64,000 nucleotides of DNA, from NCBI GenBank assembly GCA_963726255.1, contig CAVSBL010000002.1, positions 1 to 64,000 on the forward strand, given 5' to 3'. Made by a program: the position numbers and the translations under genes. Of the stretch, positions 34,917 through 41,822 are shown piece after piece (positions within the stretch are counted from its first letter, which is position 1; every line of letters starts with the position of its first letter). The DNA is from Candidatus Bathyarchaeota archaeon. Lineage in GTDB: Archaea > Thermoproteota > Bathyarchaeia > 40CM-2-53-6. Below the pieces are notes generated by a model. That model was not told the origin of the DNA. It was given only the letters and a program-made list of their open reading frames with translations, and searched no databases.

Positions 34917-35396
34917 ATGGTTGAACGCCTAGACGCTTCCCGTGACTTTGGCGACGTTTTCGAGGTTGTCAAGAAATCTGCGGAGCATTCCCTGGGGCGT
35001 CGTAGAGCAGGCCTAATGCTGTATCTGGCTAAGCTGCCCAGGCACATTGGTGCGTTTCACACCATGGGGACAAACGGCATCGTCATGAATAGAACTATCC
35101 TCGACATGGTGACGCATGGCGCACGGTCACTTCGCGAAATCAATTCCTACGTGTATTCAATCCTGCTACACGAGTATTTGCATGCGCTCGGCTACGTGGA
35201 AGAACAGGACGTGCGAAAGCTGGTGTACGATGTCTCATTGCAAACATTCGGCCCAGAACACCCCGCCACCCAAATAGCCTCAAGAGGTCCAGGCGCCATG
35301 TTCCCCGAAATCTCACTTCATGATGCGCCAACAGAGACGCCTGACATTGAAGTAATTCCAGACCTCGAGAGAAGCAGCCAGCGGTACATCAGCTAG
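34917..35396 (+). CDS. small zincin-like metalloprotein
   Basis: LHEYLHALG (HExxH). Confidence 0.7.
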   Translation: MVERLDASRDFGDVFEVVKKSAEHSLGRRRAGLMLYLAKLPRHIGAFHTMGTNGIVMNRTILDMVTHGARSLREINSYVYSILLHEYLHALGYVEEQDVRKLVYDVSLQTFGPEHPATQIASRGPGAMFPEISLHDAPTETPDIEVIPDLERSSQRYIS

Positions 35397-37704
35397 CTAC
35401 CGTGTAAGATATTCGTCTATCCACAATTCTCTTCTTTGCTTCAGGCCAAAGCGTGAACGGCAGCAGACCGTACGATGAACGACCTAGGTGCGTGGTCCTG
35501 TCTGAGCCGCAATTGCTGCATTTCGGTGTGATTCCAAGGTCGGTGTGGTTGCAGACGCTGCAGGCTGAATAGTTCGCTGTATACGTCAAGAACTTGCAAC
35601 CATATTCAAACGCTCTCTCGGTGAGCTTCAAAAGAGCGGGCGCCGTGGAATCAGGGGAGATACAGACCACGCTGAGATGTCCGCCAGGCGTCGCTGATTG
35701 AAACCCCGATTCCATATCCAACCTGCTGTCGATAGTCATTTTCGTTGTCAAAGGAATGGTCGGCAAGTCGGTGTAGTACAAGAGGCCCCTAGATCCGTCT
35801 GCTACAATAACCGCCCTCCCATATTGCTCCATGTCCAATTCCGCGAGCCTACCCGCGGCTTCGTCCCCGGGCCGTTGTGAAACCAGAATGCGCAGCTCCG
35901 ATTCATCTGAGGCGGACTTTAGCAGGTTCGAAGCCTCTTGCAGGATTCTTAGGCCGAAATCAGCTGCCGCTTTGTCCCGTTCCATCCTGAGTCCGGTATG
36001 GGCGTCGACGGCTTCGTTCAGGCCAATAAATGAGAGATTGTAGGAAGAGTTCTTTTCGTAAAAGTAGGGTGAGGCGCCACCCTCCCCAGCCAAGAGAGGG
36101 AGCAGCGGTTGTTTCAGACGTTCGCTGACGAACTTTTTCTTGACTTTGAAACCTTCCACAGTTAACGCGACAGCCTCGCTAAGTAATGCTAGGAATTTTT
36201 CGTCGTTCTTCTTGGCCTCGTACGCTATTCGAGGAAGATTTATGAAAATAGTGTCCATGCTACCTGTTCTGATACAGTCCGCGTCCCAATGATTCGTCCA
36301 CTCATCGCCTAACCTAAGCCCCGTAGCCGAGTAACTGCTCTTTTCTTCGTCGCCAATTAGTTCGAAGAAGGGGATGCTGCGTTCTGCGGCCAGTTGGTGG
36401 GCTTTCTCAAGAATCAGTCTACCCTGCGCGTCACTCAGAGCCTTGCGCCTAACTTTTACTACAAGATGGGGCAAAACCGGCGGGCGTGACTGTGACATTT
36501 TCTGAAAAGCTTCGATTGTCGCACCGGCCAGCCGACTGCTTTCATCCGAGAAATCTGAATATTTGCCGGCGCTTTTGCCACCTGGACCGATCGCATTCTC
36601 CTGCGAAAGGAACGCTGGCATCGCCAAGTCAACTGAGACTGATATCCCTGCTAGAGGAGTGCTTGAGGGGATATCTTTCCGCAATGAAGTGAGGAAGTAG
36701 TAGATGCCGTTAGAAATGTCCTCCGCCGATCTTCCTTGGATGTATGGGGAGAGGAAAATGTTGAAGAATTCAAGCGTCTGCTCTCCTGAGACCTCGCCGG
36801 CCCCGAGTTCCAATACTTGGCGGACCAGTGCAAGCGCCGCTTCGAAAGTGTCGGGTGGTGATATTCCCGGGAGACTGTTCTTTAGGAAGTAACGGATGTC
36901 GTGAACAACTTCGTTTGGGGAAAGAATCCAGTTTTCCAAGTTAGCTATGTGAATCTCGCCCGAAAGGTGCGCATCCGCGAGTTTGTGAGGTAGGCAGTTG
37001 AGCAGAACATATTCCGAGAGAACCGACCTCGCCGACGAACGTTGAACGTAACCAGCGCTAAGCTGCTTCTCGCCCGCAGTTTTGATGAGTTGGGCCACAT
37101 CGTAAACTGGCATTCCAAGCCTTGTGAGCTTGTGGCGGTACTCCTCCAGTTTCTTCTCAATCAAAATCGCATTGACGAATTCGCGAATTAGCGGCGCAGT
37201 AAGGTAAGTCGTCTTTAATCTGACGAGCCTATCCTCAGCCTCGGCTGCTATCTCGTCTGCGATTTCTTGTGGGACGCCCGCTTCAACTACGAGTGACCTC
37301 GCGATCTTGTTCCTGTGGAATTCCTCTATTGCAAGCCTTGAAGATCTCACGTAGAGTTTGCCGCGCTTGACATTAACGTACTCGTCCAAGTCTCGAGCGA
37401 AGGATACGATCATTCGGCCGAGTTCAGTGACCTCGTACCGCTTTGTCTTCTTTTCAAGGGTCACTAGGCCTATGTCGGTTAGGCTTCGGAGATGATAGAC
37501 AAATTTGCCAGCGTCCCGCACAGGGTCAAGTTTGAGCTGGAACATTATTTCCGTATACTGGAGGGGGCCTTTGGTTGATAGAAGTCGTAAAATTTGTAGC
37601 CTTACGGGGGCAGACGCGGCGTCGAAAATGCCGGCGCCGACTCTCTCCGATGAACGAAGCAAGTGATTACCGCCTAGAAGATGGCTCGCAACCACCATAA
37701 GCAT
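35389..37704 (-). CDS. ArsR-type HTH + ATP-cone-like + class III ribonucleotide reductase-like (NrdD) protein, probably non-catalytic
   Basis: YHLRSL HTH; TAPLIREFVN; DAHLSGEIHI, INLPRIAY, FIGLNEAV, PGGH, CSVC/CSNC; catalytic motifs are altered. Confidence 0.85.
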   Translation of the reverse strand: MLMVVASHLLGGNHLLRSSERVGAGIFDAASAPVRLQILRLLSTKGPLQYTEIMFQLKLDPVRDAGKFVYHLRSLTDIGLVTLEKKTKRYEVTELGRMIVSFARDLDEYVNVKRGKLYVRSSRLAIEEFHRNKIARSLVVEAGVPQEIADEIAAEAEDRLVRLKTTYLTAPLIREFVNAILIEKKLEEYRHKLTRLGMPVYDVAQLIKTAGEKQLSAGYVQRSSARSVLSEYVLLNCLPHKLADAHLSGEIHIANLENWILSPNEVVHDIRYFLKNSLPGISPPDTFEAALALVRQVLELGAGEVSGEQTLEFFNIFLSPYIQGRSAEDISNGIYYFLTSLRKDIPSSTPLAGISVSVDLAMPAFLSQENAIGPGGKSAGKYSDFSDESSRLAGATIEAFQKMSQSRPPVLPHLVVKVRRKALSDAQGRLILEKAHQLAAERSIPFFELIGDEEKSSYSATGLRLGDEWTNHWDADCIRTGSMDTIFINLPRIAYEAKKNDEKFLALLSEAVALTVEGFKVKKKFVSERLKQPLLPLLAGEGGASPYFYEKNSSYNLSFIGLNEAVDAHTGLRMERDKAAADFGLRILQEASNLLKSASDESELRILVSQRPGDEAAGRLAELDMEQYGRAVIVADGSRGLLYYTDLPTIPLTTKMTIDSRLDMESGFQSATPGGHLSVVCISPDSTAPALLKLTERAFEYGCKFLTYTANYSACSVCNHTDLGITPKCSNCGSDRTTHLGRSSYGLLPFTLWPEAKKRIVDRRISYTVAS

Positions 37705-37855
37705 GCGCTGACGTTTAAAAAATTGTAGTTACCGCTATACCCCCATTATGGGGTTCAGAAATTCCCCATTCACAGCAATTGAGAATCTTTATTTTGGTTC
37801 GGCATGCGAGGAAGCGCCTCACAATGTAGGTGTTACGCGAGTGGATGAAGTGCGA

Positions 37856-38356
37856 ATGCGGGGAGCGGATTACAGTACCCTGGCGAAACTTGAAGAGGCC
37901 TTCGAACGAAAGGACCTTTCATTCTTCAAAACGTTCCTGCAAAACTCAAAGGGGCTCCCCCTCCTACTCCGAGTTCACGCAGTTTGCATGCTCGAGCACA
38001 TTGGAAACGAGGAAATGGTAGAGCCATTGTGCAAGGTCCTTGCGGAAGACCCTAGTCCCCTCACACGGCACGAAGCTGCGTTCACCCTTGGCCAGTTGGG
38101 TCACAGCTCAGCCGTGCCGGCATTGGTAGAGGCGATGCAACATGACGAGAGCCCAATCGTTCGACATGAGTCGGCCGTAGCACTGAGCTCCATAGGCGAC
38201 GATCGTGCAGTTCCTGATCTGAAGAAAGCAATCGAGGATAGCGATGAGGACGTCAGCAATTCAGCACTGATTGCTTTCGAGTATCTAGACTACTTACACC
38301 GAAGAAGAGAAAATGCTTCCGATAGGTTCGCGGTGAAACCGAAGATTAGGCTGTGA
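37856..38356 (+). CDS. HEAT-repeat protein resembling one half of deoxyhypusine hydroxylase
   Basis: RHEAAFTLGQL and VRHESAVAL His-Glu motifs; start approximate (ORF track gives 37748). Confidence 0.75.
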   Translation: MRGADYSTLAKLEEAFERKDLSFFKTFLQNSKGLPLLLRVHAVCMLEHIGNEEMVEPLCKVLAEDPSPLTRHEAAFTLGQLGHSSAVPALVEAMQHDESPIVRHESAVALSSIGDDRAVPDLKKAIEDSDEDVSNSALIAFEYLDYLHRRRENASDRFAVKPKIRL

Positions 38357-40232: not shown

Positions 40233-40985
40233 TCACTTCTCGTATCCCGCATGCATGAATGTGTGCGGCGCGCCAAAGGATGGGATAAAGATGTCCTCAT
40301 ATCGAACATTAGAGAGGTACCGCCTGCTCGCACTTAATGCAGCATCTCTAAACCGCCGATTGTAAGCTAGCTCGACCGATGACCCGACGTATTGACTACA
40401 GCGTCCTCTGCATTTTTCCTTGATGTCAGCGTATAGTTGGTTAAGTGTCTTCAAATTGCTCTTAATTCCAAAAGGCTTCTCGGTAAGGTCGATTATGGTT
40501 GCATCAAACTCTTCGCTCGTGGAATAAAGAAACCTGAAGGCATCGCCTATCAAGATTCTAACCCTCCGGTCTCCGAAGGCTCGGCCTACGCCCTTGATGT
40601 ATTTCTTACAACACTCGACAAGCAGGGGGTCGATTTCGACGACAGTGACGTGCTCGATTGTCGGAGAGTCGAGTAGTGCTAGCAAGGTCTGTCCGCTACC
40701 GCCCCCAAGCACAAGGACTTCGGCGCAGCTATTTCTCTTGGCAGGGCCACAGAGGGCTTTGTTGAAGATTCGCGAATCATAGGCAGTATGCTGAACATTA
40801 CCGTCAAGAAACAACATTCTACCATAGGCATCGTTGTCGATTATGTCGATTTCTTGGTATTTTGACCGTCCTGAAAAGTAGAATTTCTTGGCATGGTATG
40901 CCAGATGTAATCCGGGGTAGGGTTCGTACACGATGTATTCAGATTTCGGAAAGCACACTTTGCGGCCGTTCGACATATGCGTCAT
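40233..40985 (-). CDS. spermidine synthase-like protein (divergent)
   Basis: SKYQEI, GRMLFLDG.VQ, VLVLGGGSG, VEID, IPSF. Confidence 0.8.
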   Translation of the reverse strand: MTHMSNGRKVCFPKSEYIVYEPYPGLHLAYHAKKFYFSGRSKYQEIDIIDNDAYGRMLFLDGNVQHTAYDSRIFNKALCGPAKRNSCAEVLVLGGGSGQTLLALLDSPTIEHVTVVEIDPLLVECCKKYIKGVGRAFGDRRVRILIGDAFRFLYSTSEEFDATIIDLTEKPFGIKSNLKTLNQLYADIKEKCRGRCSQYVGSSVELAYNRRFRDAALSASRRYLSNVRYEDIFIPSFGAPHTFMHAGYEK

Positions 40986-41036: not shown

Positions 41037-41822
41037 ATGCGCCGACCGCTCTACCGTCAACTTGTCTCTTACTACGAGCTCATCGAGGGTCGGGACTGGA
41101 AGAGCGAGGTCGGGCTCATCACTTCAATTCTGCGAGATCACGGTTCCAAATCCTTAGTCGACTTAGGATGTGGAACTGGATACCACGTGAGAGCGCTAAC
41201 GAAACTGGGCTTCGAGGCGACGGGAATTGACATCTCGAAAGAGAATATTCAATTCGCCAGAAGAAAAGCCGCTGAGGAGAAAATACACTCGCGCTTTGTC
41301 GTTGGTAGCTATTATGATTATCACCACCATGCGAGGTTTGACGCCGCTGTATGCCTGAACTGGTCTATCCCGGTCAGAAATGACGAGGTGAAACGCTTTC
41401 TTGATAACACGTACGCCCTGCTTCGACCTGGGGGGTTGTTGATTCTTGATTATGAAAGAGTATCGCAGATCGTATGGTCTGATGTCGGAAAGGCAATAGT
41501 ACAGTCATGGGAGCAGAAGAACCAGCTTATTGTAAGAGTCTCCCTTGGCAAGGTAGCCTCAAACGTGTTGTATTCAAGGGACGTTTACATTATCTACCCA
41601 AGGCTTCAGAAACTGATAGTGCCGAGCGAAAGGTCAAGGTACCAAGCCGATGAAAGAAATAGCCGTGTTCAGGTGTATGTCGATAGTTCATGTGTGCGTT
41701 TCTTCTCGATGTCAGAGATCAGAGACTTCGCACGCAGATCTGGGTTCAGGGTCATTAGCAATTTCGTTTTGCCGAGGAATGATTACAAGCGAAACTATGT
41801 TGTCCTAGAGAGGGTCAACTGA
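41037..41822 (+). CDS. class I SAM-dependent methyltransferase
   Basis: VDLGCGTG, GIDIS, LRPGG. Confidence 0.88.
   Translation: MRRPLYRQLVSYYELIEGRDWKSEVGLITSILRDHGSKSLVDLGCGTGYHVRALTKLGFEATGIDISKENIQFARRKAAEEKIHSRFVVGSYYDYHHHARFDAAVCLNWSIPVRNDEVKRFLDNTYALLRPGGLLILDYERVSQIVWSDVGKAIVQSWEQKNQLIVRVSLGKVASNVLYSRDVYIIYPRLQKLIVPSERSRYQADERNSRVQVYVDSSCVRFFSMSEIRDFARRSGFRVISNFVLPRNDYKRNYVVLERVN

Follow-up and report, generated by a model that had tools for sequence, protein, structure and literature searches.

The gene at positions 37856..38356 of a 64,000-nucleotide stretch of DNA from Candidatus Bathyarchaeota archaeon (contig CAVSBL010000002.1 of assembly GCA_963726255.1; hereafter the window) encodes a HEAT-repeat protein of 166 amino acids (P0001) that is, on profile and alignment comparisons, specifically related to each half of eukaryotic deoxyhypusine hydroxylase (DOHH), the two-iron enzyme that completes hypusine formation on translation factor 5A in eukaryotes. 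DOHH is described, in passages of PMC3306375 and PMC8153317, as two symmetric lobes with eight HEAT repeats in one polypeptide. The protein presented here comprises a single lobe and occurs as a single copy in the genome; judged by its sequence, it falls within the DOHH lineage of HEAT proteins. Structure modelling indicates that two copies of the chain probably form a symmetric homodimer. We lean slightly towards the reading that this pair acts as a diiron, O2-dependent hydroxylase of deoxyhypusyl-aIF5A. An initial annotation of the window had proposed the half-size relation to DOHH and the homodimer, and had further suggested that the protein could be an archaeal hydroxylase or an ancestral half of the eukaryotic enzyme.

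Human DOHH (4d4z_A) is the top natural match in a sequence search of the PDB (E 4.9e-27, 97.9 bits, in two stretches), and only designed alphaRep consensus proteins outscore it. The natural PBS-type proteins CpcE, QueG and MTH187 reach 27, 27 and 22.5 bits, respectively, compared to 98 for DOHH. In BLASTP alignments with spider and yeast DOHH, residues ~17-146 align with both halves at 30-39% identity, HE on HE. In the list of longer database proteins, the top places go to generic HEAT proteins of much greater length, and the matches of ~295-345 amino acids that carry a source name are mostly eukaryotic DOHH. The relation also holds in the profile comparison with generic HEAT repeats that the initial annotation had put forward as a check. 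We built half-profiles separately from the N and C halves of 70 eukaryotic DOHH, mostly of plants; on these, the scores of the 125 family members range over 71-90 bits (N) and 67-86 bits (C), each in a single stretch, with 87.0 and 86.0 bits for P0001. The best windows in 181 and 180 generic HEAT proteins, all longer than 450 amino acids and themselves top matches of the family profile, reach 55.9 bits on the N half-profile and 60.0 bits on the C half-profile, with a median of ~36. The sequence is closer to the DOHH lobes than to generic HEAT/PBS repeats, and the likeness goes beyond the metal ligands to the whole of the RHEAAFxLGQ and VRHExAxALGxIG helices and to an invariant glycine seven residues after the first histidine.

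The motif strings on which the initial annotation was built are all present in the protein: PLLLRVHAVCML spans residues 35-46, SPLTRHEAAFTLGQL residues 67-81 with H72-E73, and SPIVRHESAVALSSIG residues 99-114 with H104-E105. The DOHH motifs named alongside them match fetched eukaryotic sequences; the spider protein P0163, for one, has PLKERFRALF, SALLKHECAYCLGQM and PIVRHEAAEALAAIG. Eukaryotic DOHH (yeast Lia1; EC 1.14.99.29; human structure 4D4Z) has the same HEAT/PBS-type fold with four repeats per lobe, and in each lobe His-Glu motifs occupy the same two repeat positions as in the half-size protein, where this amounts to two motifs per chain and four per dimer. We take H56/E57 and H207/E208 of human DOHH to be the counterparts of H72-E73, and presumably H89/E90 and H240/E241 are those of H104-E105. 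The iron ligands of the human enzyme are listed in a passage of PMC3306375. R71-H72-E73, G79-Q80 and R103-H104-E105 show no variation across 55 aligned sequences. None of the 121 family proteins (P0001-P0121) departs from HE-x30-HE, and 46 of the 48 related loci keep it, so the conservation that the proposal needed is found; of the two loci without the pattern, L019 is truncated at the end of its contig and L027 has a frameshift. In the latter (L027:6001-6500, in a Bathyarchaeia metagenome-assembled genome), the frameshift lies between the first HE motif and the next helix and stems either from a fault in the assembly or from decay of the gene. Generic PBS-lyase HEAT proteins (CpcE/F, NblB, MTH187, E. 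coli YibA) and the alphaReps share the repeat type and the helical hairpin geometry. Unlike the half-size family, however, generic HEAT-repeat proteins seldom carry 'HE' at the equivalent repeat position (16 of 2380 repeats), and PBS-lyase HEAT proteins are open solenoids rather than a two-lobe clam.

Compared to eukaryotic DOHH, which has ~300 amino acids in two lobes, the 166-residue protein has one lobe, no inter-lobe linker and an extra pair of N-terminal cap helices, and its active site would need a homodimer. It also ends in a KPKIRL basic tail that is conserved in Bathyarchaeia. This (V)KPKIRL tail, in which R165 and L166 are invariant among the Bathyarchaeia proteins, is absent from the Nitrososphaeria relatives, whose ends differ.

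The AlphaFold2 (AF2) model of the monomer (predicted local distance difference test, pLDDT, 95.4; predicted template-modelling score, pTM, 0.90) contains nine helices, read as two N-terminal caps followed by four helical hairpins, in agreement with the four-repeat HEAT lobe of DOHH. In a Foldseek search, the best natural structure is again 4d4z_A, at rank 20 behind designed alphaReps (template-modelling (TM) score 0.70, root-mean-square deviation 3.4 Å, 139 columns). One lobe per chain falls outside the definition of DOHH, and the predicted homodimer would make up for the missing lobe. We modelled the homodimer with two iron ions three times, the ions being included and the ligands left unscored. 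The interface score ipSAE is 0.86, 0.88 and 0.89 (median 0.88) versus 0.00 for the best of three controls, which bears out the homodimer of the initial annotation at the level of a prediction; among proteins of solved structure, the mark for this score is reached by 20 of 30 pairs of one chain and by 1 of 23 single chains. The contact agreement across runs is at least 82%, and the partner pLDDT is at least 88. The predicted interface is two-fold symmetric and runs along the motif-bearing face (residues 36-37, 40-41 including H41, 67-69, 99-101 and H104), and repeat 4 packs on repeats 1-2 of the partner through residues 132, 135-136, 138-139, 142-143, 145-146 and 149-150. In the model, residue 101 meets residue 101 of the other copy, as expected on a two-fold axis, and H104 touches residue 101 of the partner.

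Natural fusions lend independent support to the pairing of half-size units. P0296, a protein of 363 amino acids and a singleton on an 18-kb contig, consists of two half-size units of the Nitrosopumilales type joined in tandem. The AF2 model of this fusion (pLDDT 85.2) matches the whole of human DOHH with a target-normalised TM score of 0.80, and the other PDB structures that it matches are all open solenoids with TM scores of at most 0.51. A hydrophobic, signal-like N-terminus precedes its two units. P0296 was brought up, together with P0292, P0324 and P0367, by a family-profile search of 1.84 billion representatives. A second fused type consists of Lys/Asn-rich proteins of ~280 amino acids with four His-Glu motifs at a spacing of 32 (P0400, P0409, P0411, P0416, P0418, P0421, P0423 and P0454); the source name of P0416 is Nanoarchaeota archaeon, and one member is called deoxyhypusine monooxygenase by JGI. 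Both the ~280-residue archaeal proteins and P0296 have the HE-HEAT unit with the 32-residue spacing of the half-size family, but with two units per chain.

The origin of these fusions was analyzed in two trees, a careful one (61 rows, five generic outgroup windows) and a quick one (59 rows, four generic windows, SH-aLRT support only). The archaeal half-size proteins of Bathyarchaeia and Nitrososphaeria form a clade in both (support 96/89 in the careful tree, 91 in the quick tree). In the careful tree, the N and C halves of the eukaryotic enzyme join at 92/90, and those of P0296 pair as sisters with a support of 100/99. In the quick tree, the HE-bearing units form one clade apart from the four generic windows (SH-aLRT 99), and N and C halves pair with their own partner in the eukaryotes (92), the ~280-residue type (99) and P0296 (84). 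As the halves of each fused type are each other's closest relatives, the fusions would have arisen separately. Read plainly, the trees suggest that duplication and fusion of the HE-HEAT unit took place at least three times, namely in the eukaryotes, in the ~280-residue archaeal type and in P0296; such repetition fits a unit that works in pairs, with the stand-alone form as the older state. The archaeal half-size clade falls outside the joined N and C halves of eukaryotic DOHH in both trees, which fits an unduplicated, possibly ancestral form. The ancestral half proposed in the initial annotation is supported to this extent, but gene conversion between halves would mimic the pattern, and the four to five generic outgroup windows leave the root unfixed. 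A wider scenario is offered tentatively, and we would sooner expect it to need revision than to hold in full: a stand-alone homodimeric lobe would be the ancestral DOHH, used on aIF5A by oxygen-respiring archaea (ammonia oxidisers and the oxidase-bearing family of Bathyarchaeia), and an archaeal gene of this kind, duplicated in tandem and fused, would have given rise to the eight-repeat enzyme of eukaryotes; within the archaea, the same would have happened at least two more times.

A search of 5.8 billion proteins yields 481 matches. The best 120 are 159-257 amino acids long (nearly all below 210), are 71-96% identical and fall in more than 100 clusters; the source names among them are 'HEAT repeat protein', Bathyarchaeia and, often, the automatic JGI name 'deoxyhypusine monooxygenase'. 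Named loci, a few of which carry names of bacterial bins, comprise Bathyarchaeia at 68-95% identity and Thaumarchaeota, Nitrososphaerales and Nitrosopumilales at 42-52%. The Nitrososphaeria homologues, named 'PBS lyase HEAT domain protein repeat-containing protein (DOHH)', belong to the same length class and have the same two RHE motifs at this 42-52% identity, but differ from the Bathyarchaeia proteins in their C-terminal tails and gene neighbourhoods; H41 of the Bathyarchaeia proteins is an arginine in Nitrosopumilales-type sequences. In a sample of the phylum, the gene is present in 69 of 401 genomes, mainly in the families f33 (54/56) and f41 (9/17), with a few in f56, f76 and f77; the carriers other than Bathyarchaeia are Nitrososphaeria, and most of the sampled members of that group have the gene. 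Archaeal amoA was found in three of the five carrier representatives tested (f33, f76 and f77). A feature neighbour in the ESM Atlas (0.96) is a 162-residue cluster that is commonest in Methanobacteriota and bears the name 'Putative deoxyhypusine monooxygenase (DOHH)'.

The occurrence of the gene follows that of terminal oxidases. The genome that contains the window (2.42 Mb; completeness 98.5%, contamination 9.3%) has two genes for subunit I of heme-copper oxidases, along with a cytochrome bd oxidase (C2:171435-172748, 1083211-1084674 and 1198909-1201135). Among the 201 sampled Bathyarchaeia genomes, 24 have COX1; it is present in 18 of the 22 genomes of the family f1, compared to 5 of the 178 sampled from elsewhere in the class. 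All 13 gene-bearing Bathyarchaeia genomes carry COX1, and the gene occurs in none of the 177 genomes without it. The family f1 looks like an oxygen-respiring branch of a class that is usually described as anaerobic.

From the homology to each DOHH half, the invariant motifs, the confident dimer model and the restriction to oxidase-bearing lineages, we infer iron binding, the use of O2 and aIF5A as the substrate. Two identical chains would pack head-to-tail round a two-fold axis, bringing four His-Glu motifs to face one cavity, an arrangement that would mirror the N and C lobes within one eukaryotic DOHH chain. The pair of chains would bind two iron ions and activate O2, and deoxyhypusine on the conserved lysine of aIF5A would be hydroxylated to hypusine. 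A putative substrate pathway is encoded in the same genome: its aIF5A has the lysine loop KPGKHGAAK (GKHG) and lies directly upstream of one of two DHS (PF01916) genes (C2:1278557-1279447 (-) and C2:1565867-1566712 (+)); aIF5A/DHS loci are represented by L002, L003 and L004. Spermidine synthase is encoded in the window as well, 1.9 kb downstream of the half-size gene.

A number of observations weigh against this function. The aIF5A/DHS genes lie ~1.5 Mb from the half-size gene, with no conserved neighbourhood. The gene forms a divergent pair with an NrdD-type gene, with ~150 bp between them, in 15 of 16 Bathyarchaeia loci (close kin), and the partner is an anaerobic-type enzyme. The spermidine synthase of the window is paired with a divergent methyltransferase of class I, both at 1.9-2.7 kb downstream of the gene, and the same pair is found 0.25-6 kb downstream in L006, L009, L010 and L027, so that the link is limited to the window and four closely related, non-independent loci. 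Spermidine is the aminobutyl donor for deoxyhypusine. Among the 25 neighbouring open reading frames (ORFs) scanned in five Nitrososphaeria loci, none is hypusine-related and nothing is in common with the window's neighbourhood; because the neighbourhoods are unrelated to hypusine in Nitrososphaeria and come from close kin in Bathyarchaeia, the spermidine synthase is given little weight. The distribution speaks against a general archaeal DOHH, as the gene occurs in 13 of 201 genomes of the Bathyarchaeia sample, all of one family (12 of the 22 genomes of f1 plus the window's genome), and 332 of the 401 phylum genomes are without a family match, many large families having none. The association with COX1 has the standing of a consistent pattern rather than of a statistical test, given that it concerns essentially one lineage, with very few independent ones. 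Furthermore, a HEAT_2 search gives no match in the control genomes of Sulfolobus acidocaldarius and Methanocaldococcus jannaschii. A passage of PMC5178350 reports that S. acidocaldarius contains hypusine; without a HEAT_2 match in that genome, the family cannot be its hydroxylase, and hypusine can be made without this family. These points limit the idea of a missing archaeal DOHH in the initial annotation. At the level of sequence, the halves of DOHH score a median of 122-146 bits on each other's profiles, above the 67-90 bits of the family, which makes the family a relative of the DOHH lobe and a copy of neither lobe. The HE-to-HE spacing is 32 residues in the half-size family versus 33 in the 70 eukaryotic DOHH. 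The dimer model may remember 4D4Z, in which the two lobes meet through an interface of this kind, and the alignment behind the P0296 model contained eukaryotic DOHH rows. Finally, among the papers that our literature searches listed, none gives the hypusine or deoxyhypusine content of Bathyarchaeia or ammonia oxidisers.

Part of this evidence would suit a different chemistry. The family may be a homodimeric HEAT protein with a diiron or other metal centre that uses O2 or peroxide on another substrate, for example a different side chain on a protein, a polyamine, or a small molecule such as a quinone, or it may serve as a sensor or scavenger of oxygen or iron. Nothing in the genomic context links the gene to aIF5A or DHS, and the distribution tracks aerobic respiration rather than the universal aIF5A/DHS pair. 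Since the family branches outside both eukaryotic halves, its substrate may differ from theirs. In two Nitrososphaerales loci, the gene adjoins a methyltransferase with weak UbiE/COQ5 matches, but UbiE-type matches are common for generic methyltransferases. A role in the futalosine pathway of menaquinone synthesis does not apply to the window's genome, where a search for MqnA/MqnD (PF02621) gives no match at 98.5% completeness. The residues in common with DOHH, moreover, go beyond the metal ligands to whole helices and the invariant glycine, and we know of no other substrate for any DOHH-type protein. Taken together, we consider another substrate or a sensing role unlikely, though it is an alternative to be taken seriously.

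It is far less probable, in our view, that the protein is a non-catalytic adaptor of the PBS-lyase HEAT type, in which the His-Glu pairs would serve protein binding or structure with no metal chemistry. Such an adaptor would agree with the Pfam annotation of the 166-residue protein, which consists of generic repeat families only (HEAT_2, 8.8e-33; HEAT_PBS, 2.5e-16; HEAT), and with the NCBIfam matches to NblB (37 bits, cut-off 300), CpcE (31, cut-off 330) and CpcF (14, cut-off 220); all three NCBIfam matches lie far below threshold, and the curated score of a lyase or NblB model is not reached. The alphaReps that precede DOHH in the sequence and fold searches point the same way, as do the 62,353 matches of the family profile at E ≤0.001 in the representatives, of which the best 150 are nearly all giant HEAT proteins. 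However, the two HE pairs are absolutely conserved at the DOHH positions, in contrast to their rarity in generic repeats, and the scores on the DOHH half-profiles are well above those of any generic window. The listed members are 71-96% identical over more than 100 clusters, which would suit an enzyme, and independent tandem fusions recreate the two-lobe layout of DOHH. The hydroxylase of deoxyhypusyl-aIF5A is the reading that we slightly favour.

No DOHH orthologue is known in archaea according to passages of PMC3306375 (2012), PMC5178350 (2016), PMC7773846 (2020) and PMC8153317 (2021), and hypusine is stated in passages of the same four papers to be present in Sulfolobus and other Crenarchaea. 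In PMC9040561, DOHH is presented as an oxidase that emerged from a HEAT scaffold without enzymatic activity, and archaeal forms are not mentioned. Our searches found no paper on a half-size archaeal DOHH-like protein, although the broader ones listed a small share of the matching papers and cannot exclude one. The half-size family is not unrecognised by databases, which already use DOHH names for it ('deoxyhypusine monooxygenase' at JGI; Nitrososphaerota cluster names with '(DOHH)' in the ESM Atlas). A conserved single-lobe relative of DOHH is a concrete enzyme candidate. Ammonia oxidisers can be cultivated, and the presence of amoA among the tested carriers makes cultured members of this group a probable bench system. 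If the family does have DOHH function, it predicts which archaea carry hypusine instead of deoxyhypusine; if it homodimerises, it illustrates a simple route from a repeat scaffold to a diiron oxygenase. It would then also provide a plausible archaeal ancestor for a signature enzyme of eukaryotes. The hypusine of Sulfolobales is left unexplained by this family.

The features of the gene and its surroundings are collected in Table 1. By comparison with homologues, the predicted half-size DOHH-like protein has a true length of 166-171 amino acids. An ORF at 37748..38356 (+) gives 202 amino acids counted from its first ATG, and the annotated start corresponds to Met37 of this ORF. Many homologues begin at the equivalent of Met37, and others have a five-residue extension MDExRM, which here would start at a GTG 15 nucleotides earlier and give 171 amino acids. 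The first ATG (37748) was ruled out as the start because the homologues begin at Met37 or five residues before it. The family-profile match in the genome covers 37844-38353.

Table 1. Features of the half-size DOHH-like gene and of its neighbours, in window coordinates
Feature	Coordinates	Strand	Remarks
NrdD-type anaerobic ribonucleotide reductase	35389..37704	-	Divergent neighbour; PF13597, 3.8e-65
TTTATTTT, possible archaeal TATA-like element	37788..37795	+	46 nt upstream of GTG 37841; suggested by sequence alone
Coding sequence, half-size DOHH-like protein	37856..38356	+	166 aa + stop; alternative start GTG 37841 possible
Two N-terminal cap helices, before HEAT repeat 1			Residues 3-29; AF2 model
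HEAT repeat 1, PLLLRVHAVCMLEHIG	37958..38047	+	Residues 35-64; helices 36-49, 52-64; aligns with PLxERFRALF of DOHH
HEAT repeat 2, first His-Glu motif	38051..38143	+	Residues 66-96; helices 68-81, 84-96
His72-Glu73 codons	38069..38074	+	Align with first His-Glu motif of each eukaryotic DOHH half
HEAT repeat 3, second His-Glu motif	38147..38230	+	Residues 98-125; helices 100-113, 116-125
His104-Glu105 codons	38165..38170	+	Align with second His-Glu motif of each eukaryotic DOHH half
HEAT repeat 4 / long C-terminal helix, EDVSNSALIAFEYLDY	38240..38314	+	Residues 129-153; helix 131-153
Basic tail (V)KPKIRL	38336..38353		Conserved in Bathyarchaeia proteins
Spermidine synthase	40233..40985	-	
Class I methyltransferase	41037..41822	+	Divergent from spermidine synthase

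The putative TATA-like element upstream of the gene was recognised by its resemblance to the archaeal TATA consensus. RNA data contributed one run (share 0.07), from which one contig of a relative, 90-95% alike, covers 37400-37757; this contig reaches the nrdD side only and is silent on the DOHH-like gene. The NrdD-type neighbour has an N-terminal winged helix (DUF7347/ArsR-like) and a weak ATP-cone match (E 2.6e-4) that falls below the Pfam cut-off. Transcribed divergently across ~150 bp, an oxygen-sensitive NrdD and a putatively oxygen-dependent DOHH-like enzyme thus share a control region. In the two Nitrososphaerales loci mentioned above (L026:6456-7103 (-) and L031:6471-6998 (-)), the methyltransferase with the weak UbiE/COQ5 matches is of class I and convergent, and is followed by a short-chain dehydrogenase.

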